Shown piece after piece: positions 5,105 to 64,000 of a DNA stretch of 64,000 nt. This DNA is from an uncultured Spirochaetota bacterium. GTDB taxonomy: Bacteria; Spirochaetota; Spirochaetia; SZUA-6; Fen-1364. The DNA lies in assembly GCA_963733835.1 (NCBI GenBank), contig CAVTER010000015.1, positions 561,988-625,987 of the forward strand. The letters run 5' to 3'. Positions within the stretch are counted from its first letter, which is position 1, and each line of letters opens with the position of its first letter. The notes beneath the pieces were generated by a model that saw nothing but the letters and a program-made list of their open reading frames with translations, did no database searches and was not told the DNA's origin. The position numbers were made by a program, and so were the translations under genes.

Positions 5105-5587
5105 CTACAGCTTCCTGTAGCGGAAGTCGACGTCCGGGTCCTTGACGACGAGGATCGAGCAGCGGGAGTTCCTGAGTATGTCGCGGTGCTGCCTGCTCAG
5201 CGCATCGCGGAAGCTCTCCTTCTCCTCGAAGCCCCCGAGCAGGATGAGGTCGGCCTCGCAGTCCTGGGCAGCCTGGATGACCTCCGTGGCCACCGCGCCG
5301 CGGCGCAGGACCTTCTCCACGGCCACGCCCTTCTTCTGCGCCAGCTCCTCCACGTAGTTGAGGTAGCGCTGGCCGTTCTCCTCGAGGCTGGCCTCGTACT
5401 CCACGCTCTCGTCCTCGACGAAGATCTTCGAGATCAGAAGCTCGCGCAGCGTGGCGGTGTCGACGACGTAGACGGCCACGAGCCTGCAGCGGTACAGGCG
5501 GGCCATCGTGATCCCGTACTTTGCGGCGCCGATGGAGGCCTCCGACCCGCTCACCGCAACGACGACGGTCTGGAACAACGCTTTCAT
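5105..5587 (-). CDS. uspA: Universal stress protein (UspA family)
   Basis: 160 aa. Usp fold signature (…DLILLGG… and ATP-binding-like G-rich motif). Immediately downstream of V-ATPase D. Confidence 0.65.
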   Translation of the reverse strand: MKALFQTVVVAVSGSEASIGAAKYGITMARLYRCRLVAVYVVDTATLRELLISKIFVEDESVEYEASLEENGQRYLNYVEELAQKKGVAVEKVLRRGAVATEVIQAAQDCEADLILLGGFEEKESFRDALSRQHRDILRNSRCSILVVKDPDVDFRYRKL

Positions 5588-15687: not shown

Positions 15688-16869
15688 CTACTTCTCCTGC
15701 AGCGCCGCGACGCCGGGCAGCTGCTTGCCCTCCAGGAGCTCCAGGGAGGCGCCGCCACCGGTGGACACGTGCGTGATCTTCGCGGCAAGGCCGAACTGGT
15801 TCACGGCGGCCACCGAGTCCCCGCCGCCGACCACCGTCGTGCCCCTGCAGTCGGACACGGCCTTCGCCACGTCCTGCGTCCCCTTCGCGAAGCCCGGGAA
15901 CTCGAACACGCCCATGGGCCCGTTCCACACCACGGTCTTCGCCTTCAGGATCCTGTCGCGGAACAGGGACACGGACTTCGGCCCGATGTCCATGGCGACC
16001 TTGCCCTCGGGCACCGCGGCGGAGTCCACTGGCTCGGGGGTCGCGGTCTCGGCGAATTGCGCCGCCACCACGTGGTCGACCGGAAGGAGCACTTCGACCT
16101 TCGCCTCCTTCGCCCTGGAGAGGAACGCCGAGGCCGTTGCACTGAGCTCTTCCTCCACCAGGGACTTGCCCACGGCGATGCCCTGGACCTTGAGGAAGGT
16201 GTACGCCATGCCTCCCCCGATGATCATGGTGGTCACCCGGGGCAGAAGAGACTCGAGCACGGCGATCTTGGTGGAGACCTTCGCACCGCCGATGACGGCG
16301 ACGAACGGCTTTGCCGGGTTCTCGAACACCCCGCCGAGGAACTTGATTTCCTTTTCCATCAGGAAGCCGGCCACGCCGGGCAGGATGCGCGCCACACCCT
16401 CCGTGGACGCGTGGGCCCTGTGGGCCGTGCCGAAAGCGTCGTTGACGTACACGTCTCCCAGGGCGGCAAGTGACTTCGCGAACTGCGGCTCGTTCTTCTC
16501 CTCCTCGGGGTGAAAGCGCACGTTCTCGAGGAGCACCACGTCCCCCGCCTTCATCGCCTTCACGACAGCCTCGGCGGCGGGGCCGACGCAGTCGGGCGCG
16601 AGGGTCACGGTCCTTCCCAGGAGCTGGCCGAGCCTCTCGGCCACGGGGGCGAGGCTGTTCTCCTTGTCCGGCTTCTTCGGCCTTCCGAGGTGGCTCATGA
16701 GGATGAGCGAGGCGCCCTTCTGGTCGAGGATATAGCGCAGAGTGGGAAGCGCCGCGGTGATCCTCGTGTCGTCGGTGATCTTCCCCTCCTTGAGGGGAAC
16801 GTTGAAGTCGACGCGGACGAGCACCTTCTTGTTCTTCAGGTCGATGTCGCGGACAGTCTTTTTCGCCAT
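15688..16869 (-). CDS. pgk: Phosphoglycerate kinase
   Basis: Conserved PGK blocks ([20 protein letters not shown]). Start verified at 16869. Confidence 0.92.
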
Positions 16870-16992
16870 GCCCTTGCTCCTTCTTCGGGGTGTGTGACGA
16901 GGGGTGAGACCGCCCGCCAATGTACGGAAAAGGCCCCCCCGTGTCAACAGTTCGCGGGGACGGCGGCGGCCCGGCAGGGAGGAGGCGCGACC

Positions 16993-52529: not shown

Positions 52530-52919
52530 TCAGCGCGCCGTGAAGTCCCCCGGCTGGATGAACACGATGGTCGAGGAACCGCGCACGTCCATCGAAAGAA
52601 AGGAGATCGCATCGCGGAACCGCTTCACCTTGTACACGTAGGTGATGGGAGGGTCCAGCCTGCGCAGGGCAGCGTTCGTCGGTTTCCAGGACTCGATGAC
52701 GAAAGTCCAGGTGTCGCCCTTCTCTGTGAGCACGCCGGAGAACACGGCAGTTCCATCAGAGGACTCGCGCTGGAGGCGGAACGCCCCTCGCGAGAAGGAA
52801 AGCGTGTCGGTCAGGTCGGTGCTCTGCCAGCTCCATGCGCGCGTGTACACCGTGCCCGCGCAGGACGCCAGGAGCAGCACGGTCGCGGCAACGGCTGTCA
52901 GCAGGACATTCCTCTTCAT
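52530..52919 (-). CDS. Lipoprotein, hypothetical
   Basis: 129 aa, signal peptide with lipobox LLLASC. Confidence 0.5.
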   Translation of the reverse strand: MKRNVLLTAVAATVLLLASCAGTVYTRAWSWQSTDLTDTLSFSRGAFRLQRESSDGTAVFSGVLTEKGDTWTFVIESWKPTNAALRRLDPPITYVYKVKRFRDAISFLSMDVRGSSTIVFIQPGDFTAR

Positions 52920-53827
52920 CTCTGCACACCTCCCTCTTCACGGGCCCAGGCCTTGCGGACGAGCCGGGCCGGGTCGAGAACGATCACCGCTGAGCCATCC
53001 TCCGCGACCCCTCCCCCGGCCGCCCAGGGGCGGCACTCCCCGCCAGTGCGGACGAGCGTGACGGTGCGCACCCCGCCGTGCTCATCCCCGGCGAGGCACG
53101 CGCGCCTGCGGCCCGCGCGCACGATGACACCCGCCAGCTCGGGCTGGCCAGCCCCTTGCCGCGGCGCGGAGGGCGCGAAAAGGCTCTCCAGGAGAAGCAC
53201 GGGAACTGTCTTCCCGTCGCGCGAGACCGCGGTGCTCCGCCTCACGTTCATGCACTCGACGACCGCGGCGCCGGGAATCCCGTACCACCGTCCCCCCGCC
53301 CGCAGGAGCAGGCAGCGCGACGCCCCCGGGAGAACCGGAACCTTCACCTCGGCGGCCGCCCCGCGGCCGACTTTTCCGCCAACCCTGGCCAGGCGTCGAC
53401 CCGCCTCCTCGACGGCGGCGGCAGCCGACCCGGTCCGCTGCGGCCTGCCGCCTGAGAGCGTGAAGGTCACCCAGTCGTCCTGCTGTCGTGCGTCAAGCGA
53501 CAATTTCGCAGAGCCACGCCGCGCGTTGCGGCCCGGCAGGCGGGCTTCCGCCAGGGCGACCAGCGCAGCGCGGACCTCGCTCACGAGGGAGGAGTCGATC
53601 TCCACGTCCAGCCCCGACACCTCCACCGTCGCGCGGGGCGCGAGCGCACGGGACACCGTGCGGAAGACGGGGCCGACCGGAACGAGCCGCGCGCGCGCGG
53701 CCGCGTCGCGGACCTCGCGGGCCGCACCCGCGCAGGCCGAGGCGGCGTCGGTCACCTGCCGCCCGGCGGAGGCGAGGCCGTCCTGCAGCCGGGCCACGAG
53801 CCCCTCGGCTGCGGCGAACCTTTCCAT
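52916..53827 (-). CDS. CheA-like protein C-terminal portion: dimerisation-like region, degenerate kinase core, CheW-like domain
   Basis: …LVPVGPVFRTVSR…VEVSGLDVEIDSSLV… parallels the CheA P3/P4 junction, but the N-box/G1/G2 ATP-binding motifs are missing. The C-terminal 140 aa are CheW-like. Confidence 0.5.
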   Translation of the reverse strand: MERFAAAEGLVARLQDGLASAGRQVTDAASACAGAAREVRDAAARARLVPVGPVFRTVSRALAPRATVEVSGLDVEIDSSLVSEVRAALVALAEARLPGRNARRGSAKLSLDARQQDDWVTFTLSGGRPQRTGSAAAAVEEAGRRLARVGGKVGRGAAAEVKVPVLPGASRCLLLRAGGRWYGIPGAAVVECMNVRRSTAVSRDGKTVPVLLLESLFAPSAPRQGAGQPELAGVIVRAGRRRACLAGDEHGGVRTVTLVRTGGECRPWAAGGGVAEDGSAVIVLDPARLVRKAWAREEGGVQR

Positions 53828-53864
53828 GACCGAGCGCGCCGCCTCGGTTGCGGCAGCCCCCGAA

Positions 53865-54470
53865 CTACACGGAGTCGAGAAGCCCCGGCATCTCCCGTGC
53901 AGCTGTCGCCATCACCTCGTGAAAGCGCAGGGCAGCCTCGCGCGCCTCCCCGAGGAGGGCGCCGGGCGAACGGGCGCCGGCCGTGAGCGCGGCGGCGGAT
54001 CGCTCCGCCTCCAGGGCTGCCCGGGTCACTGCCTCAAGCCGCGACGGCTGCACCCGCAGCAGCCTGCGTCCCGGCGGAAGCAGGGCGGCGGGCGCTGCCC
54101 GTCCCCGCAGCTCGCCGAGGAGCGCGTTCGCGGCCGTGAGGTCGGCCTCCCCACCCTGCGCGGCGCGCGCCGCAGCGCGTGCCGCCTCGGCGAGCATCAC
54201 CGCGGGCCCTTCGCCCGCCCCCCCGTCCCGCATCGCAGCCGCCGCCTCGCGGATGAGTCCCGCAAGCTCGCCCAGGCCGACCAGGCCTGCCGCCTCGGCC
54301 TCGGCGCGGAGCGAGTGGGCAGTGCGGAACACCTCGTCCAGCGCGTCGACGGGAACGGAGGACCCCCGAAGGCCGTCCGCGTGCGCCGCGAGCGCGTCGG
54401 CGAGCCGGCGGGCCTCCGAGAGGCTCCCCTCGAGGAGGCTCGTGTTCTCGGTATCGAGGTAGTCGCTCAT
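53865..54470 (-). CDS. Hpt (histidine phosphotransfer, CheA P1-like) domain protein
   Basis: 201 aa four-helix Hpt with FRTAHSLRAEAEAAG (phospho-His context). Lies 38 nt upstream of the CheA-like C-portion and may be one gene split by an indel. Confidence 0.5.
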   Translation of the reverse strand: MSDYLDTENTSLLEGSLSEARRLADALAAHADGLRGSSVPVDALDEVFRTAHSLRAEAEAAGLVGLGELAGLIREAAAAMRDGGAGEGPAVMLAEAARAAARAAQGGEADLTAANALLGELRGRAAPAALLPPGRRLLRVQPSRLEAVTRAALEAERSAAALTAGARSPGALLGEAREAALRFHEVMATAAREMPGLLDSV

Positions 54471-54590: not shown

Positions 54591-55310
54591 GTGACTGTGA
54601 GCATCCTCGTGGTCGAGAGTTCCCCGTCGACGCGGGAATCTCTCTGCTACACCCTTCTCTCGTTCGGCGTGAAGGGCATCCCGGCCGCCTCGCGGAGGGC
54701 GGCGTTGGACATGGTCCACGCCACCGCCGACCTCGAGGCAGCAATCATCGACATCGACAACCGCGATGTCGAGGGCTCCGCCCTGGTCGAGGAGCTGCGC
54801 GGCAGCGAGAAGACCCGCGGGATCGCCGTCATCGTCCACACTGTGCAGTCGGGCAAGGACTTCGTCATGACAATGATCGAGTCCGGGGTGGCCGGTTACC
54901 TGCTGAAGCCCTACGATCCCGCCCGGGCACGCGACAAGCTCGGCACAATCCTTTCCAAGCTCGCGACTCATGATGGCCAGAGGAAGCATTTCCGGGTCCG
55001 ACCCGACCCCGACGACCTCGCCCGAGCGCACTTCCGTCTCACCCCCGGGGCACCCCTGTACTCCGGCAGGATCGTCGACGTCAGCCTGGGCGGCATGGCA
55101 ATGGAGCTGCTCACGCCCCCGGCCGAGGGCCTGCTGCAGCCGGGCACCCGCATCCCGCGCCTGGAGTTCGCGCTGGGAGGCAGGGAGCTCGCCCCGCAGG
55201 CCGCTGTGGTGCTGCTCAAGGCGCGGGTTCTTGCCCTGCGCTTCGAGCCCATGGCACCGGCAGACACGAAGTCCCTCGAGAGGTATATTTTCAAGAAGAT
55301 ATCGTCCTGA
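54591..55310 (+). CDS. Response regulator receiver (REC) plus PilZ domain protein
   Basis: N-terminal CheY-like receiver (ILVVESSPSTRE…D…LLKP). C-terminal PilZ motifs (RKHFRV…, DVSLGGMAMEL). Confidence 0.65.
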   Translation: MTVSILVVESSPSTRESLCYTLLSFGVKGIPAASRRAALDMVHATADLEAAIIDIDNRDVEGSALVEELRGSEKTRGIAVIVHTVQSGKDFVMTMIESGVAGYLLKPYDPARARDKLGTILSKLATHDGQRKHFRVRPDPDDLARAHFRLTPGAPLYSGRIVDVSLGGMAMELLTPPAEGLLQPGTRIPRLEFALGGRELAPQAAVVLLKARVLALRFEPMAPADTKSLERYIFKKISS

Positions 55311-55327: not shown

Positions 55328-56455
55328 ATGGCGACACGCGGGCGTTCTGTGGTGCGGGCAACCTGCCTGCTCGTTTTCCTGCTGGCCGCCGGCCTCGCCG
55401 GCGCCGCGAATGTCAACGTCGCTCTGGACCTGCTGACCCACGGGTACTCCAGCTCGGGCTTCAAGCTGCAGAGCGTCGGGCAGATCGACCTGACCGTCGA
55501 CGGCGGGTACAAGTTCGGCGGCCTCATCGGGCTGACCCTCCAGGAGGGCACCAGCCTGGAGTCGCCTACTGCGGCGCTGGATTTTGACAGGGTCAATGTC
55601 GGCATTCGTGACCTTTTCGGACTGCCCCTCGACTTTGCCTTCTTCATCGGGGGAAGCGACGTGCTGGCCCGCGGCGACGCCTTTCCCGCGGTCTTCGGCA
55701 CAGTCCCCATCGGGACAGACTACCGGGGCCTGATGTACTTCCCCGCCATGACCCTCTCGACGGTCTACAACGGGGGCATCCACGCGGTCCGGGGCACGGG
55801 AATCAAGATCGACTTCTACCCGAAGCGCGAGACGACCCGCCTGAGCCTGTACGCGTACGAGGACACGGCCGCCGCCTTCGGCGGGGCTCTTGGGAACTAC
55901 TCGGCTGACCTGCGCTACATGGGGAGCTACGGCGCCCTGGCGGTCGAGGGCTTCGCGGGGTGGACCTTCGCCCCCTCCCTTGCGGCGATGGGCTATTTCC
56001 GCGGCGGCGCCATGGTCCATTTCGAGACCAGGAATATCGAGGTGCTCGCCCAGGCAGGCCTCCCCAAGTACGATCCCGCATCCACGCCGTTCGGGATGGA
56101 GCTCTTCTACCTCCTGTTTGAGCCCAGCCTCCACCTTGGCCAGTTCTCGATCGTCCCGACCTTCTTCTGGCACCCCGCGGCCTACCTGCAGCAGGACAAC
56201 CCGGGCGAGGAAGGGGCCTTCGACGTGAACCTGAACCTCTTCTTCGGCGACCTGGTCAAGACGAGCGTCCGCGCTGGCCTCGAAGGCAACTTCTCCATCC
56301 TGACGTCCACGGGAGTGTTCGAGGTCCACGCCGCCCCCTATGTCGGCTTCACGACGCCGGGGGTCCTCTGGACCGTCCGCCTGAACGCCAGGCTGTGGCC
56401 CTTCGCCTGGGCCGACATGTTCGACGGATTCGTGGGACTGCGCGCCGAACTCTGA
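55328..56455 (+). CDS. Secreted beta-rich protein, probable outer-membrane beta-barrel
   Basis: Signal peptide ending LAGA-ANV, 375 aa with amphipathic beta-strand periodicity and aromatic-rich turns. Confidence 0.4.
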   Translation: MATRGRSVVRATCLLVFLLAAGLAGAANVNVALDLLTHGYSSSGFKLQSVGQIDLTVDGGYKFGGLIGLTLQEGTSLESPTAALDFDRVNVGIRDLFGLPLDFAFFIGGSDVLARGDAFPAVFGTVPIGTDYRGLMYFPAMTLSTVYNGGIHAVRGTGIKIDFYPKRETTRLSLYAYEDTAAAFGGALGNYSADLRYMGSYGALAVEGFAGWTFAPSLAAMGYFRGGAMVHFETRNIEVLAQAGLPKYDPASTPFGMELFYLLFEPSLHLGQFSIVPTFFWHPAAYLQQDNPGEEGAFDVNLNLFFGDLVKTSVRAGLEGNFSILTSTGVFEVHAAPYVGFTTPGVLWTVRLNARLWPFAWADMFDGFVGLRAEL

Positions 56456-56619: not shown

Positions 56620-57645
56620 TTACTTCTTGGGGGCTGCCTCGACGTGCATCTTCTGCTTCTCGAGGTAGCGGAGGACCTGGATGTTGCCCAGGCGCTTGAG
56701 CTCCGCGAGCCTGCGCGCCTCGTAGCGCTTCTGGAGGATGTTCCAGATCGCCTCGTCGTTGATGTCGCGCTCGGTCTCGATGATCGCCTTGTCGTAGGTG
56801 ATCTTGATGTCCTTGATGTAGGTGACGAAGTCGCCGCCCTCCTGCTGGGAGTCCCTGTAGACGATGATTCCCATCAGCTTCAGGTGCGGCGTGCTCTTCG
56901 GGTACAGGGGGTACTTGCGCAGCTCCCTGTTCCTCACCTCGACGACGTAGTTGGGGTTGTTCCACGTGAGAGTCCGCCAGCCGTCGAACTCGAGGTAGTC
57001 CATGAACATGACCTGCTCGTTCCCGTCCTGGTCGGCGACCACGACGCCCAGCCCGTTGGGGAAGTTGGCGCCGTACACGGTGATCGACAGGCTCTTCACG
57101 ACGCCCACGTTCTTGACGACGCCGTAGCCGTTGAACTTCTCGCCCCTGCCGAGGTCCTTTGCGTCCGTCCTGAGCTGGTCGCCCTGGAGGGTCTGCTTGT
57201 CCGCGTAGGCGGGGATGTCGAAGGGCGGCTTGATGATCGCCCACGAGTTGAACGACTCCACCGGGAAGTGGATCCGCACGCCGAGCACCTTCTTGTTGGC
57301 GATCTCCTCGCCGTTGAGGGGCTTGGCCTTCGCGGAGACGGGTGACTCGCGCGTGGTGGTATCGCTCTGGTTTTTCACCGAGCGGGCAGACGATGCGAGG
57401 GTCACTTCCCAGTTGTTGAGGGCCAGGGAGGTCTTCATCGCGGCCTTCTCCTCGTCTGTGAAGGTCGCACCGGCGACGTTGCTGAAATCAACGAGCGTCG
57501 CCGCGTTCTCGGTCGGGACCTTGCTGTTCCCGAGCGCCTGGTCGGCCGCCAGCTTGGTGAAGTCGATGAGCACCGACTCGTCGGCGAACAAGGCAACCCC
57601 TCCGAGGAGAAGCCCGACGACAACGATGAAATACAGCCGCTTCAT
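56620..57645 (-). CDS. flaA: Flagellar filament outer-layer (sheath) protein FlaA-like
   Basis: 341 aa. Signal peptide then ESVLIDF… N-terminal block and overall resemblance to spirochete FlaA family proteins. ATG verified at 57645. Confidence 0.55.
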   Translation of the reverse strand: MKRLYFIVVVGLLLGGVALFADESVLIDFTKLAADQALGNSKVPTENAATLVDFSNVAGATFTDEEKAAMKTSLALNNWEVTLASSARSVKNQSDTTTRESPVSAKAKPLNGEEIANKKVLGVRIHFPVESFNSWAIIKPPFDIPAYADKQTLQGDQLRTDAKDLGRGEKFNGYGVVKNVGVVKSLSITVYGANFPNGLGVVVADQDGNEQVMFMDYLEFDGWRTLTWNNPNYVVEVRNRELRKYPLYPKSTPHLKLMGIIVYRDSQQEGGDFVTYIKDIKITYDKAIIETERDINDEAIWNILQKRYEARRLAELKRLGNIQVLRYLEKQKMHVEAAPKK

Positions 57646-57718
57646 GCATTGCTCCTTTCGATCAATAATGGGCAATCCGCGTGTTCCGAAGACAAGTATA
57701 GCGATGCACCCGGCGTTG

Positions 57719-58222
57719 TCAAATTTTTTTCTTTTCCCGGGCGCGTGGAACCTGTCCGTCGATAGTGACGGACAGCTCGCGCAGGCGGGGGAAATTGACG
57801 CGCAGCGAGCGCGCAAGCCCTTCCAGCGCGGCGGCCCCTTCCAGCGGGGTCTCCGGGTCAGGCAGCGCCGCCGCGGGGGAAAGGTCCAGGAACAGGGTCC
57901 CCTCGCGCACCACGAGCCCCTGGACGGACACGCCGCGGGGGAAGAGGCGTGCCAGGTCGGGCCGCATCGGCCCCAGCAGCGCCCCGTCGACGACCTCCCG
58001 CACGCCTTCCTCGAACGAGCGATGCCGCGGCACCGCCCTCTGCTCGGCCACCAGGCGCGTGCCAAGGTGGTCCGGGAAGAAGAGGACCCTGCTGACCTTC
58101 CCGTTGCCCAGCAGCAGGAACAGCAGCAGGGAGAGGGCGGCGGCGCCCAGGAACACGGCGCCGGCGATGGCGGCCCTGCCGCGCACGCGGGCCTGGAGAA
58201 TGAAGTCGAGTCTACTGAACAC
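57719..58222 (-). CDS. GerMN-like / hypothetical exported protein
   Basis: 167 aa, N-terminal TM/signal, downstream partner of the amidase (a common amidase-GerMN pairing). Confidence 0.35.
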   Translation of the reverse strand: MFSRLDFILQARVRGRAAIAGAVFLGAAALSLLLFLLLGNGKVSRVLFFPDHLGTRLVAEQRAVPRHRSFEEGVREVVDGALLGPMRPDLARLFPRGVSVQGLVVREGTLFLDLSPAAALPDPETPLEGAAALEGLARSLRVNFPRLRELSVTIDGQVPRAREKKKI

Positions 58223-59276
58223 GGGGACTCCCGCCGCGTTCGAATCGCGAGATGAACGCGCGCACCCCAGAGTATATGCCCTCGGCCAGGTCGTTCAAGT
58301 ACGCCGGCTGCGCCAGGCGCGCGGCCTCCTCGGGGGTGGAGATGAAACCCACTTCGATCAGAACGGCCGGCATCTTGGTGTTGCGTACCACGTACCAGGA
58401 CTCCTCCTTCAGCCCCCGCGACGGGGACACCCCCCCCACCGACCTTTCCAGCCCGGCAAGGATGTCCCGGGCGAGGACGATGCTCTCGACGGTGATCTCC
58501 TCCTCCAGCATGCTGTTCAGGATCGGGATCATCTCCTCGTCCACGCCGTCCTTCCCGCCCTCCAGGAGGTTGCGCTTGTACTCGGGCGGGAGGTACCACA
58601 CCTCGAAGCCCGTCGGCTTCGAGGCCCGGTTCAGCGTCGCGTTGGCGTGCACCGAGATGTACAGCACCGTGTCGGCGGTCTTCGCGAGCAGGGCGTTTGC
58701 CATGTCCGCGCGGTCCTCCAGGGAGATATAGGTGTCGTCGCCGCGGGTGAAAAGGATCTGCTTGTCGGGGTATTCCTCCGCGAGCCGCCTGCCCAGTGTC
58801 TTCGACACCGCCAGCACCACGTCCTTCTCGCGCACATCGACTGGAGGCTTCCTCGAGGCGTCCCTGCCCACGGCACCGGGGTCCTTCCCCCCGTGCCCCG
58901 GGTCGATGAGCACCGATCCGATGCGCAGGCGTTCCATGGCCCGCGCCAGGCGCTGTCTGCCCACCGCGTCGCTCACGGCCGCCACCGCCTCGGCGGTCAG
59001 GAACACCGCCCCGTCCCGCAGCGTCGGCGCGTCGATGTTCACCTTGACCGCATAGTCCACGACGACGAAGGGCACGCCGACCTGGAGGGCGATCCTGTCA
59101 TCACCGGCCTCGATCACCCCGAGCCCGCGAAGCGGGTCCCACTCGAGGCTCCCGCCCAGCTCAGCAACGAGGGCGAGGAGTTCCTGCTCCTGCGCCTCGA
59201 GAAGGGGGGGAACGGCCGTCCCCAGCAGGAACAGCAGCAGCAGACATGGCAGCGCGACAGGACGTCTCAGCCGCAT
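58212..59276 (-). CDS. N-acetylmuramoyl-L-alanine amidase (Amidase_3, AmiC-like)
   Basis: Signal peptide, AMIN-like N-terminal region, catalytic domain (VLIDPGHGGKDPGAVG…ISVHANA…). ATG verified at 59276. Confidence 0.8.
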   Translation of the reverse strand: MRLRRPVALPCLLLLFLLGTAVPPLLEAQEQELLALVAELGGSLEWDPLRGLGVIEAGDDRIALQVGVPFVVVDYAVKVNIDAPTLRDGAVFLTAEAVAAVSDAVGRQRLARAMERLRIGSVLIDPGHGGKDPGAVGRDASRKPPVDVREKDVVLAVSKTLGRRLAEEYPDKQILFTRGDDTYISLEDRADMANALLAKTADTVLYISVHANATLNRASKPTGFEVWYLPPEYKRNLLEGGKDGVDEEMIPILNSMLEEEITVESIVLARDILAGLERSVGGVSPSRGLKEESWYVVRNTKMPAVLIEVGFISTPEEAARLAQPAYLNDLAEGIYSGVRAFISRFERGGSPRVQ

Positions 59277-60868
59277 ACCCGCCCGAGGTACGCGGCCAGT
59301 TGCCCCTTCGCCGCCGCGGCGCGCACGCTGTCGGCGAGGTACAGTGCCCCTTGCCGTGAGCCGCGCAGCAGCGCCCGCCAGAAGAGGCGGCCGAGGGCGA
59401 AACCCGGCCCGACGGGGCCCGCGCGAAGCCGCGCTCCACACTCCGCGAGTGACAGGCGCACCGCCTCGGCGAAACCCGCCCCGTGCCAGTCCAGCTCGGC
59501 GATATCCTCCCAGCCCTGCAGGGAAATCACGGCGATTTCGTCCGCCGGGTGGAAGGCAGAGGGGTCGCCCGTCCATGCGGGCAGCCCGGCAAGACGGGCG
59601 GACGAAGATCCCGCGGCCGCGGGAAAGGCGTCCGTGCCGCCGGCGAACAGGAAGCCGTCGGTGCGGTCGTCCAGGGGCTCCAGCTGGACCGAGATGCACG
59701 AAATCGCGGCACGGGCGGCCGCGATTGCCCCCTGCCTCTCCTCGTGCACGCTGATGACGTTGCCGCACTTCTGCACGTTGTTGCGCGGGAAGACTACCGC
59801 CGACCCCGGCCGCACGCGCAGGAAGACCTCCGCGACACCGTCTCCCGCCCGTGCCCTGTCGACGCCCCTCACCTCCCGCACCGTGCCCGGCAGCGAGATG
59901 AAGGCGCGTTCGGCCGACACCCGCTTCACGCGCGGGGACAGGTCGCCCGGAGGAAGCCCCACGGCGATGTTCAGCGCGGCTCCTGTCACGTCCACGCCCG
60001 AGGACAGGGGGAAGGTCCACCCCGACATGTAGCCCCCCGAGAGCCTGGCCGCGATCTCGCCGATCATTGCTCCCCGCGGGGTGATCTTGATGTCGCCCTT
60101 GGCGGCGCCCGTGTGGATCCCCAGGGCACGGATACCGGCGCGGAAGACTTCGCAGGCCTCCCCGACCGTGCGCGACCCGAGGTCGGTGGGCATCGTGTGC
60201 CCCAGCTCGACGAAGCAGGGAGGGAAGAAGATGTGGCGGTCGGCAACTCCGCAGACGGTGGCCTCCCCCCTGGAGACGACGGCATCGAGGCTGAGCTCTT
60301 CCCCCTCCATGAACTCTTCCACGATGACGCGCGAGGAACGGGACAGCGGCAGCGCCTCGCGGCATGCCGCCTCCAGGTCGGAGATCTCATCGACCCTGCG
60401 CACCCCCCGCGCGCCCATGTTGTCAACCGGCTTCACGACGAGCGGGAAGGAGAACCCCCGCACGCAGACCGACGGCTCGCCGTCTCCCGACCAGCAGGCG
60501 AAGCGCGGGCTGGGCACCCCTGCGGCGGCAAAAGCTTCGCGCATCAGTGCCTTGTCGGTCGCCTTGAGGGCGGTTTCGTAGGGGATGCCCGGCAGGCCCA
60601 GCTTCTCCGCCACCCACGCGACGGATGCCGAAAAGTCCGTTCCCGCGGTGAACACGCCGTCCAGCCCGCCCTGGCGCCCGCAGTCGCGTGCCAGCGACAC
60701 CAGGCCGTCCAGGTCCTTGAGGTCGACGTGGGCAAACCGGTCGCAGAGGCCCTTCCCTTCAGCTTCCGGGTTTCCGTCGGCGACAACGACCCGCCACCCC
60801 CTCCCCTTCGCGATGCGGATGGCAGGGATCTGCATGATGCCCGCGCCCAGGATCAACACGGTTCTCAT
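59267..60868 (-). CDS. ATP-grasp domain enzyme (carboxylate-amine ligase-like)
   Basis: 533 aa. Rossmann-like N-terminus (LILGAGIMQIPAI), ATP-grasp core (PLVVKPVDNMGARGV…EEFMEGEELSLDAV). Confidence 0.6.
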   Translation of the reverse strand: MRTVLILGAGIMQIPAIRIAKGRGWRVVVADGNPEAEGKGLCDRFAHVDLKDLDGLVSLARDCGRQGGLDGVFTAGTDFSASVAWVAEKLGLPGIPYETALKATDKALMREAFAAAGVPSPRFACWSGDGEPSVCVRGFSFPLVVKPVDNMGARGVRRVDEISDLEAACREALPLSRSSRVIVEEFMEGEELSLDAVVSRGEATVCGVADRHIFFPPCFVELGHTMPTDLGSRTVGEACEVFRAGIRALGIHTGAAKGDIKITPRGAMIGEIAARLSGGYMSGWTFPLSSGVDVTGAALNIAVGLPPGDLSPRVKRVSAERAFISLPGTVREVRGVDRARAGDGVAEVFLRVRPGSAVVFPRNNVQKCGNVISVHEERQGAIAAARAAISCISVQLEPLDDRTDGFLFAGGTDAFPAAAGSSSARLAGLPAWTGDPSAFHPADEIAVISLQGWEDIAELDWHGAGFAEAVRLSLAECGARLRAGPVGPGFALGRLFWRALLRGSRQGALYLADSVRAAAAKGQLAAYLGRVCG

Positions 60869-61860
60869 CCGCGCGCCTTTCCGCCCTTTCTCCTGACAGG
60901 GGAGGAAGCACCCCCGCCCTGCCGCCTCGGGGCAGCCCCGGATCCCCAGCGCGTCGCGGTAAGCCCGGCCGCAGCCGCACCGACCCCGAAAGCCAACAGG
61001 CCGAAGCCGACTGCCGTCGAACCGGCGCGGCGTCGGGCGTCCTGCATCGCAAGCTCGAGCGACGAGGTCTCGACGGCCACCCGCACCATGCCATTGCAGA
61101 AATACGAGACCGAGGGGTCGAAGAAGACTATTGGAGAGTAGAAGACATACGAGCCTGCCCGCTGCGCAGGGTCAAAGGCGGGGTAGCTGCGCACCGGCCC
61201 GAGAGCCTCCACCTCGGCGGAGAGCGCCTGGTCGATCTCCCGCCCCAGCGCGAAGAGGGCCTGCCGGGCTTCTGACAGCTGCGGAGGGATCCGCCCCCGT
61301 GGGCCTGCCCGTGCGGCATTCAGCGCCGCCCGCCCCTCCGCGTACCTGTTCACCCTGTCTCCGAGGGCTGCCCGCAGCCGCTCTTCCACCTCCCGCTGGA
61401 AATCTCCGATGACGCCCTTGCGGCCCAGCTCGTCCCCGGCAGACTCCTCCGCGGGGCGGAAGGCGCCGCTCTCGCGCACGCTCTGCCAGGCCTCCTCGTC
61501 GCTCGCCAGCACGTAGTCGCGCACCGAGCAGCGCTCCGAGTTGTAGATCTCGTCCTGGTGGGGACCGGTGATCGTCACCGACGTCGCCTCGGGCATGGAG
61601 CGCCTTGCCGCCGTCAGGTCACGGATCGTCGCGTAGCCCTCGGCGCGGAGCGCGACCTGGCCGGCTGCAACGGAGGCGAGAGACCGGGTCAGCACCTCCG
61701 CGCGACCCCGAAAGGCCTCGGCAGCGGCGCGCTCGCCTCTCCTGGCGGCAAGGATGCCCGGGGGGACTGCCGCGACACCGGCCACGACGAGCCCGATCGC
61801 GCTCACGAGCAGGATCCGTGTCGCACGGGGATGCCTCTGCCGCCGCGCAGCTTCTCTCAT
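60865..61860 (-). CDS. Membrane-anchored hypothetical protein
   Basis: About 331 aa, N-terminal and C-terminal TM helices, no recognised domain. Confidence 0.35.
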   Translation of the reverse strand: MREAARRQRHPRATRILLVSAIGLVVAGVAAVPPGILAARRGERAAAEAFRGRAEVLTRSLASVAAGQVALRAEGYATIRDLTAARRSMPEATSVTITGPHQDEIYNSERCSVRDYVLASDEEAWQSVRESGAFRPAEESAGDELGRKGVIGDFQREVEERLRAALGDRVNRYAEGRAALNAARAGPRGRIPPQLSEARQALFALGREIDQALSAEVEALGPVRSYPAFDPAQRAGSYVFYSPIVFFDPSVSYFCNGMVRVAVETSSLELAMQDARRRAGSTAVGFGLLAFGVGAAAAGLTATRWGSGAAPRRQGGGASSPVRRKGGKARG

Positions 61861-63654
61861 CGACCTACCCTCCTGTTGCCGCGCACCCGCACTGCATACG
61901 CCTCGAAGGTGTCGCCGAGCCGCAGTGCCCGACTGACGGCAAGAACCATCGCTCTGCCCGCCCGTCCCCGTGCGGCGAGCCGACCGAGCAGGCCGGGGAA
62001 CCGCTCGGGGTGATGCCCCGTGATCCGCACGCGCACGAGCCGGAAGCCGCGCCGCCCCAGAAGCGGCCCCAGCGCACCGGGCGAGAAGATCGTCGCGTGG
62101 TCGAAGGGGCTTCGCTCGAGGAACCGGCGCCGATCGGCGAGAGCAGTGATTCCCCTCCCGTTGGGCGTCGAGAAAGCGAGCACGCCCCCGGGAGGCAGCA
62201 GCCCCGCGGCCTTGTCCAGGGCAGCCCCCGCGTCCTGGAAGTGCTCGATGACGTACCACATCGTGACCGCCGCGATCCTCCGGGGCAGCGCCTGCCGCGG
62301 GAGGCTCTCGAAAGCCCCGCGCACCGCAGGCATCCCCAGCCTCTTGCGAACGTGCCTCACCGCGTGGGCCGAGACATCGACCCCGATACCCTCAAGCCCC
62401 GCTTCCCGCAGCGCCGCGAGGAAAGGGCCGTAGGCGCATCCCACGTCGACCACCGCGCCGCGGGGACCAGCCTGCAGGAGCCGCTGCACCTCGCGCACCC
62501 TCGGTGCGCACAGCAGGCGGATGGCGTCGAAATCCTCGAGGTAGGTCCGCCCGTACTGTGACCGGTATTCCGAGAAGAAGTACTCCCTGCCGTACCTGCC
62601 CCCCCGGTGAACGAAGTCCTGCAGGAAGAACACCCGGCAGGCAGAGCAGCGGCGGTACGTCCTGTCCGAGAACCGCGCGAGCACCCTGCCTCCCGGGGTC
62701 CCGCAGACCGGGCAGGTCTCCCGGGCACCCACAACCAGGGCCGACAGCAGCCCCGCGAGGCTCGTGTTTCGGCGGCCCGCGATCTCCGTGTTGAACCTCT
62801 CGACACAGGCGTGCAGCACATCCGGGTCGCGCAGCAGCTGGCGCAGCTTCCCCGCGCGTGGCTTGCGCCGGCCACAGTCAGGGATGCCGGCTGTCCGTCC
62901 CAGCAGCCGGTGATAGCTGCTGGGATGCGCGAGTATGACCGGCGTGCCTGAAGCGAGTGCCTCGAAGGCCGTGACCCCGAAGTGGGTGAACACCAGGTCG
63001 TGCTTCCACAGCTCGCCGCGCAGCTCGCCGCCCGCTTGACGGACACGGACGCCCTTCGGCCATTCGCGCGCGGCAAAGAGCGCCCCCTGCACGACCGTCA
63101 CGCAGGAAGGGTCCCACAGCCCCGACGTGACCAGCGCATCGAGCAGGGCGCCTGTCAGGTTCTCCCGGTCCTCCCCGCCGAAGGTGACAAGGATGCGGCG
63201 CAGCTCTCCCGCGTGGCGGCGTCGGCGGGCAGGCAGCTCGAGCAGCGCGGGGGAGGCGGCGTTCGCGGGCGACCGACCGGGGGGGCCCGGCAGGGTGTCG
63301 ATGAGGAAAGACGCCGATTCACGAGCGCCTCCGCCCTCGTCCACGAACACGCAGGGGCCCAGCCGGGCAAGATGATCTGCCTCCTGCGGCGTGGTGGACC
63401 TCTTGTCCACCACGACCATGTCCCAGCGGCGGCTTCCCTCCCCCGCCCCGACGAGGCCGGGGCCTGCTCGTTCCCTTCCACCGGCTGATCTCGCCGGCCA
63501 GGTACTCACGGGCCGGTTCGTCCATGGCCGTGGTCAGGAACCAGGAGTGGCCGTCCAGGCCCCGCGCGAGACGCAGGCACCTCTTCAGGTGGCCCACGCC
63601 ATCGCCCGCCCCGGCCGCTGGCACGAGCAGGTACCTCCGCGCACCCGTGCTCAT
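61857..63654 (-). CDS. PseG/SpsG-like UDP-sugar hydrolase/glycosyltransferase fused to SAM-dependent methyltransferase with Zn-ribbon; frameshift ~63440
   Basis: N-terminus MSTGARRYLLVPAAGAGDGVGHLKRCLRLARGL (PseG motif) in ORF 63319-63654, continuing in ORF 61857-63509. CxxC…CxxC ribbon plus class-I methyltransferase motifs (VVDVGCAYGPF). Confidence 0.6.
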
Positions 63655-64000
63655 GCCTCCCTCCCCCGGTTTCCCGGGCCGGAGAGCCAGCGGACGACAG
63701 CCTCGACCTCGATGGGCGATCCGGTGTACAGGTCCTCGAAGAGCCTCTTCATCCGCTGGTAATCCTGCGGGGTGTCCACCGTGACCCTGCCGTCCGGCAT
63801 GAAAGCCCAGGCCGGGGGCCGCTCCTCCACGATGCGGAACAGGTCCCTGTGCCGGTAGTGGTACGTCGTGATGTGCTCGCGCTCGGCCTTGTCTACGGCG
63901 TCACGCTCGGCACGGAAGAGCGCCCCGGTCTCCACGGCCTCGACGCCCATCCCCCAGGGCAGGTCCAGGTAGTGGCTGAGGTCGGCGCGGGCCTCGTCGT
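63651..64000 (-). CDS. Acylneuraminate/pseudaminate cytidylyltransferase-family protein (SpsF/PseF-like), C-terminal part; continues beyond the window
   Basis: …VDTPQDYQRMKRLFE… C-terminal block typical of CMP-nonulosonic-acid synthetases. The coding frame runs to the window end. Confidence 0.5.
   Translation of the reverse strand, partial: DEARADLSHYLDLPWGMGVEAVETGALFRAERDAVDKAEREHITTYHYRHRDLFRIVEERPPAWAFMPDGRVTVDTPQDYQRMKRLFEDLYTGSPIEVEAVVRWLSGPGNRGREA

Follow-up and report, generated by a model that had tools for sequence, protein, structure and literature searches.

A conserved spirochaete locus places putative nucleotide-sugar enzymes and an amidase–GerMN pair beside flaA

The gene for the flagellar sheath protein FlaA of an uncultured Spirochaetota bacterium lies at the downstream end of a run of co-oriented enzyme genes, in the last part of a 64,000-nucleotide stretch of DNA (the window; contig CAVTER010000015.1 of assembly GCA_963733835.1, positions 561,988 to 625,987) for which a candidate flagellar glycosylation island had been proposed from sequence (the original prediction). 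We found that the anatomy of this locus is as predicted and that the locus is far more conserved than could be seen from the window alone: it appears to encode an uncharacterised, spirochaete-specific pathway. Its gene content, gene order, coupling, conservation and promoter motif are established. As to function, analogy with characterised enzymes makes a candidate flagellar glycosylation pathway the best single hypothesis, with a probability that we put at roughly 0.4.

Anatomy and conservation of the locus

We read the genes on positions 56620-64000 and used the curated cut-offs of Pfam and NCBIfam for family membership. All seven genes of the original prediction were found there on the minus strand, with flaA at the downstream end. 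In order of transcription, they are an SpsF-like cytidylyltransferase (CTP_transf_3; 63651..64000) of which only the C-terminal ~115 residues fall in the window, the gene continuing past its edge; a frame-broken fusion of a GT-B domain, a Cys4 zinc ribbon and a class I S-adenosylmethionine (SAM) methyltransferase (61857..63654; Methyltransf_23, E 9e-22); a membrane protein of 331 amino acids (aa) without Pfam or NCBIfam match (60865..61860); a 533-aa ATP-grasp ligase of the L-amino-acid-ligase type (59267..60868); a secreted N-acetylmuramoyl-L-alanine amidase (Amidase_3; 58212..59276); a membrane-anchored protein with a GerMN (Germane) domain (57719..58222); and flaA itself, encoding the periplasmic flagellar filament sheath protein of 341 aa with a signal peptide (56620..57645). 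From the cytidylyltransferase to GerM, successive genes overlap by 4, 4, 4, 10 and 11 nucleotides (nt), and the sole gap is the 73 nt between GerM and flaA. An independent Logan assembly contains a partial fusion gene, the 331-aa gene, an identical ATP-grasp gene and a partial amidase gene in the same order.

In a scan of one genome per species, the fusion protein is encoded at no fewer than 454 loci, and the best 80 of these (numbered L001 onwards) were analysed. These 80 all belong to Spirochaetota (Spirochaetaceae, Treponemataceae, Sediminispirochaetaceae, Rectinemataceae, Alkalispirochaeta, Oceanispirochaeta and Brevinematales). Amongst loci with enough flanking sequence, 60 of 62 have the genes for a radical-SAM protein, a GT2-like protein, the cytidylyltransferase and the fusion protein in this order on one strand, and 59 of 62 have those for the fusion protein, ATP-grasp ligase, amidase and FlaA so arranged; all seven detectable genes were collinear in 49 of 52 species-level loci, and the order is kept at protein identities down to ~30%. 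The locus is present in cultured Treponema parvum, T. brennaborense, T. bryantii and Alkalispirochaeta alkalica, and complete T. parvum genomes show the same gene order, including divergent xseAB. Because gene order is this conserved, no mobility genes were found at the locus (nor any transposase in this part of the window) and no compositional break occurs except at flaA (GC 0.70-0.71 across the locus, as elsewhere in the window, and 0.62 in flaA), we conclude that the locus is ancestral across Spirochaetia and not a genomic island, contrary to the name it had been given.

The genes beyond the window edge were read from close relatives that share 66-71% identity with the window in the fusion protein and have the same neighbours on the flaA side, a gene for a secreted protein of 375 aa and one for a response-regulator/PilZ protein. 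In these relatives the 228-aa CTP_transf_3 protein is preceded by a ~328-aa GT2-like protein (unk328), a ~500-aa radical-SAM/SPASM protein and then the divergent pair xseA-xseB; the cluster does leave the window, as had been predicted, and in relatives it goes on for only two further genes. Since xseAB is shared by the high-GC relatives and T. parvum, the conserved neighbourhood reaches beyond the operon. The exonuclease VII pair xseB-xseA stands upstream of the radical-SAM gene at 1563-3048 in L001, 5153-6620 in L003 and 8420-9940 in L085. Other flanks past the core differ between loci and include, besides the RelA_SpoT/TPR and cheA-cheW genes described below, DUF192, ribonucleotide reductase and PEGA proteins.

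Taken together, the region represents the downstream two-thirds of an ancient Spirochaetia locus that consists of a translationally coupled operon, ordered radical-SAM protein, GT2-like protein, cytidylyltransferase, fusion protein, (in this clade) sensor-like membrane protein, ATP-grasp ligase, amidase and GerMN, followed by flaA on its own promoter. FlaA membership is clear (PF04620, 252.1 bits against a gathering cut-off of 25, E 6.7e-75), and the protein is 96% identical to that of L001, whereas neighbouring proteins are 58-81% identical to their L001 counterparts. Although its GC content of 0.62 is low against ~0.70, GC at third codon positions (GC3) reaches 0.94, the highest value; composition and identity fit a gene that is under strong constraint and expressed at a very high level. 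Upstream of flaA, a σ70-type promoter (57695..57722, minus strand, read from 57722 to 57695) of the form TTGACA-16-TATACT matches the consensus at 11 of 12 positions, where shuffling expects 0.2 such sites, and the GerM stop codon sits within its −35 hexamer. The motif also occurs in a T. denticola-like contig of 37% GC (L084, ~5395-5430, minus strand), compared with 70% GC in the window organism.

That contig, from an oral metagenome (ODVE01000336.1), was found via a published primer for reverse-transcription PCR. Its gene order is a glyoxalase-family gene, pgk, amidase, GerM, flaA and a RelA_SpoT/TPR gene, which agrees with the published picture of T. denticola, where flaA is called an ‘orphan flagellar gene’ and shares a transcript with four upstream open reading frames (ORFs) in the operon TDE1716-TDE1712 (PMC9481697). 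The T. denticola-like arrangement thus resembles the present locus in running from amidase through GerM to flaA, with TTGACA-16-TATACT before flaA and the RelA_SpoT/TPR gene after it, as in some of the loci described here, and differs in having the glyoxalase-family gene and pgk upstream of the amidase in place of the sugar enzymes. Since L084 keeps amidase-GerM-flaA without the enzyme block, the invariant core is amidase-GerM-flaA, and the block is separable from it. T. denticola, T. pallidum and Borrelia did not appear among the best 120 matches of two Treponema-seeded searches, a result that does not show that they lack the block elsewhere in their genomes. The pgk gene of the window is at 15688-16992, 40 kb from the flaA locus.

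The block enzymes and their nearest relatives

The radical-SAM protein of L001 is a member of the spiro-SPASM family TIGR04321 (505.7 bits against a cut-off of 250), and we infer from the relatives that the window's own genome carries this gene too. This curated family has no assigned function; no mention of it was found in the literature searched. By sequence, its N-terminal domain matches the cytidylyltransferase fold of the Leptospira enzyme 6oew (5e-4) and its core matches BtrN (2e-10). A predicted model (predicted local distance difference test score, pLDDT, 87; predicted template-modelling score 0.86) likewise places the N-terminal domain near 6oew, IspD and GlmU and the core near anSME, BtrN and DesII. 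The GT2-like unk328 gave weak GT2 and NTP_transf_3 matches and otherwise nothing informative; a relation to the cytidylyltransferase family was considered and dropped, profile comparison having found none.

The part of the cytidylyltransferase inside the window is 68% identical to the C-terminal half of its 228-aa L001 counterpart and includes the invariant EREH and VTVDT motifs. The L001 protein matches PF02348 (E 5.5e-23), and its NCBIfam matches are confined to KdsB subfamilies, at no more than 37.5 bits against cut-offs of 155-281. A family profile searched against the PDB retrieved 6oew (3e-39) and then only cytidine monophosphate (CMP)-3-deoxy-octulosonate synthetases (KdsB, ~1e-11).

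The fusion protein has homologues of 590-607 aa, which start RYLLVPAGGAGEGVGHLKRC. Within the GT-B domain a G-H-x-x-R motif is invariant in the family (G28, H29, R32), and the window frame aligns here to positions 8-38 of the PseG model; in PseG itself, the histidine of the N-terminal G-x-G-H-x-x-R motif is presumably the catalytic base. Against the PDB, the domain profile matched a GT28-type processive diacylglycerol glucosyltransferase (5e-4) and also monogalactosyldiacylglycerol synthase, and the fold of the predicted model (pLDDT 80) resembles GtfA, YjiC and SnogD. Downstream of it, four cysteines (C320, C323, C342 and C345) are invariant in the family, and the ribbon plus methyltransferase matched KijD1, TcaB9 and MtmC both in sequence (2e-7) and in predicted fold (5e-10; TM(target) ~0.47, model pLDDT 80), so that this part appears to resemble nucleoside diphosphate (NDP)-sugar C-methyltransferases. 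In Treponema (loci L055, L076, L065, L085 and L086) the cytidylyltransferase and the GT-B/methyltransferase form a single protein with three domains and 815-896 aa; NCBI labels for this fusion vary, with ‘bifunctional glycosyltransferase/methyltransferase’ and ‘acylneuraminate cytidylyltransferase’ both in use.

The ATP-grasp protein belongs with enzymes of the L-amino-acid-ligase type by LAL_C2 (63.3 bits against 29.4, E 2.6e-17) and ATP-grasp_4 (52.4 bits against 27, E 5.9e-14), with ATP-grasp_3 also above its cut-off. Its profile retrieved 4dim (7e-41), the L-amino-acid ligase 3vot (3e-38) and BacD (3e-20) from the PDB, a pattern that suggests a resemblance to amide-forming L-amino-acid ligases. 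The C-terminal extension of ~130 aa gave no informative matches.

Two further components probably lie outside this chemistry. The membrane protein had been described as bitopic; it has two hydrophobic segments (residues ~11-40 and ~279-303), hence two predicted transmembrane helices, and its GC3 of 0.82 is coding-like. Of the loci analysed, the window, L001 and L002 alone have a gene for it between the fusion gene and the ATP-grasp gene, and in the window this gene shares an ATGA overlap with each neighbour. Most of its 67 homologues correspond to residues ~800-1110 of proteins of ~1500 aa that bear HAMP and SpoIIE/PP2C domains. Judged from these homologies, it is a clade-specific, inserted stand-alone copy of a putative periplasmic sensor module flanked by transmembrane segments, and not a pathway enzyme. 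The adjacent amidase and GerMN genes are secure family members (PF01520, 149.9 bits against 27, E 9.6e-44; PF10646, 33.7 bits against 23, E 6e-8). The amidase carries a Cu_amine_oxidN1-like domain at its N-terminus, and its best NCBIfam resemblances (CwlD, AmiB, AmiC and AmiA) all fall under their cut-offs. The GerMN gene follows that of the amidase in 54 of the 80 loci by tblastn, and also in L084. The most likely role of this pair is in the splitting of septal peptidoglycan, as in a Borrelia report taken up below.

Flagellar glycosylation and its alternatives

We suggest that the five cytoplasmic enzymes work in a single pathway whose substrate is a cytidylyl-linked sugar, a reading drawn from their nearest characterised relatives and favoured because Treponema fuses the cytidylyltransferase to the GT-B/methyltransferase and the spiro-SPASM protein carries a cytidylyltransferase-fold domain. 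In such a pathway, an acidic sugar, its core made by genes elsewhere in the genome, would be activated by the cytidylyltransferase, oxidised by the radical-SAM centre of the spiro-SPASM protein, methylated by the fusion protein, joined to a further group by ATP-dependent amide ligation through the ATP-grasp enzyme, and transferred by a GT-A or GT-B domain. Among solved structures, BtrN and DesII come closest to the radical-SAM core, and TcaB9, KijD1 and MtmC to the ribbon plus methyltransferase, which suggests oxidation to a keto-sugar and then methylation on a nucleotide-linked substrate. Unlike these antibiotic NDP-sugar enzymes, to which they are 13-20% identical, the spirochaete proteins come joined to a cytidylyltransferase-fold or a GT-B domain, and their nucleotide is probably CMP or cytidine diphosphate rather than deoxythymidine diphosphate.

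The most likely destination would be the periplasmic flagellar filament, as an O-linked glycan of nonulosonic type on the FlaB core that the FlaA sheath contacts. Core glycosylation of the T. denticola flagellum is reportedly essential for filament assembly and sheath contact. The near-invariant adjacency of flaA counts for a flagellar link, as does the cheA-cheW pair found 3′ of flaA in ~25 loci. The one spirochaete flagellin glycan that has been chemically defined, that of T. denticola, is a pseudaminic-configured nonulosonic acid bearing a 2-methoxy-4,5,6-trihydroxyhexanoyl amide on FlaB, which contacts the FlaA sheath (PMC13439194). With its methoxy group and N-acyl amide, this glycan needs a methyltransferase and an amide-forming step, and the proposal that the methyltransferase and ATP-grasp enzyme are candidates for sugar decoration is sensible in this light. 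Genes for such unusual acyl or methyl flagellin decorations were not found in the literature searched, which also offered nothing useful on the T. denticola pse gene tags or T. pallidum TP0245-TP0248.

Several observations weigh against this reading. The GT-B domain scored 20.2 and 16 bits in the two window frames, and 24.5 bits in the intact L001 protein, on the PseG model TIGR03590, whose cut-off is 153.55, and its profile matched no PseG structure in the PDB even at an E of 10; the label PseG describes a resemblance only. The cytidylyltransferase, which had been called a CMP-nonulosonate (PseF-like) enzyme, matched no PseF-, NeuA- or LegF-type model in NCBIfam or structure in the PDB profile search, its closest relatives being 6oew and KdsB. 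Extension of the cluster, through which pseB/C/H/I or neuB were expected to appear, revealed neither these genes nor Maf adjoining the block in 80+ related loci, and the Pfam-scanned ORFs of the window likewise lack them. At the flaA end, TTGACA-16-TATA(A/C)T precedes the start codon by 33-60 nt in 57 of 64 loci, and since flaA has a conserved consensus promoter of its own, its co-orientation with the block is no proof of co-regulation. The tightest coupling of the ATP-grasp gene is to the amidase (10-nt overlap) and not to flaA, and the Borrelia operon bb0665-bb0667, which includes the amidase, is described in PMC11863449 as promoting cell division. The T. denticola-like contig L084, which stands for the species whose glycan is defined, has flaA without the block next to it. 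Finally, the 80 loci are the best matches to the fusion protein, and the conservation figures hold for the lineages represented among them. What stands of the original prediction is therefore a set of nucleotide-sugar-type enzymes linked to flaA; what falls is the pse or nonulosonic island and orthology to PseG and PseF.

More specifically, the five-enzyme block might be a spirochaete-specific pathway that makes and installs the unusual acyl or methyl decoration of the flagellin nonulosonic-acid glycan, or a new modification of the FlaA sheath, a narrower proposal that we regard as doubtful but worth pursuing. If true, it would account for the block staying beside flaA since before the split of Treponema and Spirochaeta, and it would give the spiro-SPASM family its first function. 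Spirochaete motility relies on periplasmic flagella, and the locus offers a concrete, phylum-wide candidate gene set for flagellin decoration that includes a curated radical-SAM family of no known function and is available in cultured Treponema. Even if its target were the cell wall or something else, the pathway would be a conserved, uncharacterised one in an important phylum.

The amidase linkage can also be read as a sign that the block serves the cell envelope, supplying a modified sugar or an aminoacylated precursor for peptidoglycan or a glycolipid together with amidase-GerMN, with the flaA adjacency an inherited accident; we judge this unlikely. ATP-grasp ligases are known to build peptidoglycan side chains. 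Gene overlaps agree with an envelope role, in that the ATP-grasp and amidase genes share 10 nt and the amidase and GerM genes 11 nt while flaA is set apart by a promoter-bearing gap, and so do the GT28-type lipid glycosyltransferases that are the best solved relatives of the GT-B domain and the reported cell-division role of the Borrelia amidase operon. However, L084 keeps amidase-GerM without the block beside it, which makes the block as separable from the amidase as from flaA, and the block contains no conserved membrane transferase or flippase. To our knowledge, no spirochaete envelope component needs a cytidylyl-activated, methylated and aminoacylated sugar.

Borrelia burgdorferi offers a parallel in layout. 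Its amidase BB0666 lies two locus tags from flaA BB0668 (PMC11185795 and PMC11863449), and its flaA-che operon may be compared with the cheA/cheW genes 3′ of flaA in the ~25 loci here; it differs in that its amidase is tied, in PMC11863449, to cell division and not to glycosylation.

A further alternative to flagellar glycosylation is that the block makes something unrelated to either neighbour, for example a cofactor or soluble metabolite, or a glycan carried by some other protein of the cytoplasm, and is kept in place only by ancient operon structure; we judge this as unlikely as the envelope reading. It gains from the functionally unassigned spiro-SPASM family, which is absent from the searched literature, from the uninformative searches with unk328 and the ATP-grasp extension, and from a few rearranged loci (L031, L065 and L083) that have the block without flaA. 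Collinearity in 49 of 52 loci, across families and at 30-50% protein identity, would nonetheless be unusually strong for unrelated functions. At first sight L083 and L031 might also have had pse genes next to a fusion-gene copy; both proved to be rearrangements with IS200, transporters and housekeeping genes, and none of the few exceptions to the conserved order has pse genes.

Flagellar glycosylation by a complete pse- or leg-type nonulosonic-acid island, with pseB/C/H/I or neuB just past the window, is very improbable. The pairing of SpsF-like and SpsG-like proteins speaks for it, as do the names that JGI gives to homologues, ‘spore coat polysaccharide biosynthesis protein SpsF/SpsG’ among them; the locus is ancestral, however, the cluster of the relatives ends at the GT2-like and spiro-SPASM genes before divergent xseAB, and no NeuB, DegT or epimerase family was seen in the conserved flanks. 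The locus does resemble the pse/ptm loci of Campylobacter and Helicobacter and the legionaminic spsC-G genes of Bacillus subtilis in that a CTP_transf_3 cytidylyltransferase adjoins a PseG/SpsG-like GT-B protein, in its accessory methyltransferase and amide-forming enzymes, which are of a type that decorates nonulosonic acids, and in the closeness of the cluster to a flagellar filament gene. Unlike those loci, it lacks a dehydratase, an aminotransferase, an acetyltransferase, a NeuB-type synthase and a Maf/FlmG transferase; its cytidylyltransferase is nearer KdsB and 6oew, the PseG and PseF models having failed; and it has a radical-SAM/SPASM protein and a GT2-like protein in an ancestral, invariant arrangement where those are variable islands. 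A locus for a polysaccharide of the surface or capsule, exported by a Wzx/Wzy-type system, the outcome named as fatal to the original prediction, has only the ‘sps’ resemblance behind it and is scarcely credible, as no Wzx/Wzy gene and no other polytopic transporter or polymerase was found in the block or the conserved flanks of its relatives, the sole membrane protein being the clade-specific copy of the sensor module.

Frame break and neighbouring genes

The fusion gene of the window is broken, its first ~65 codons (63654 to ~63470) lying in another frame than the remainder; with one G removed from the run of five at 63440-63444, the gene reads as an ORF of 598 aa that has the expected sequence. 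Some 10 kb away, a CheW-domain gene (52916-54470) is split at ~53865 into ORFs of 201 and 303 aa and is a single 511-aa ORF in L003, and split genes also occur in the related metagenome-assembled genomes L002 and L003. We read the break in the fusion gene as a probable homopolymer assembly error rather than the mark of a pseudogene, a real frameshift being less likely, because of this second split gene in the window and those in related assemblies.

The rest of the window is housekeeping in character, its Pfam-scanned ORFs including a V-type ATPase, pgk, mutS2, an energy-coupling factor transporter and prenyl-quinone genes. Directly 3′ of flaA, a RelA_SpoT plus TPR protein, a putative small alarmone synthetase, is encoded in ~24 loci (L049, L055, L076, L084 and L085 included), and the cheA-cheW pair mentioned above follows flaA in ~25 others; the window has neither. 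Instead, two plus-strand genes converge on flaA, one for the response-regulator/PilZ protein (54591-55310) and one for the 375-aa secreted protein (55328-56455), the latter without a family match. The secreted protein is kept beside flaA in ~25 loci and the PilZ regulator in fewer, and the position of this regulator may reflect a cyclic di-GMP link to motility.

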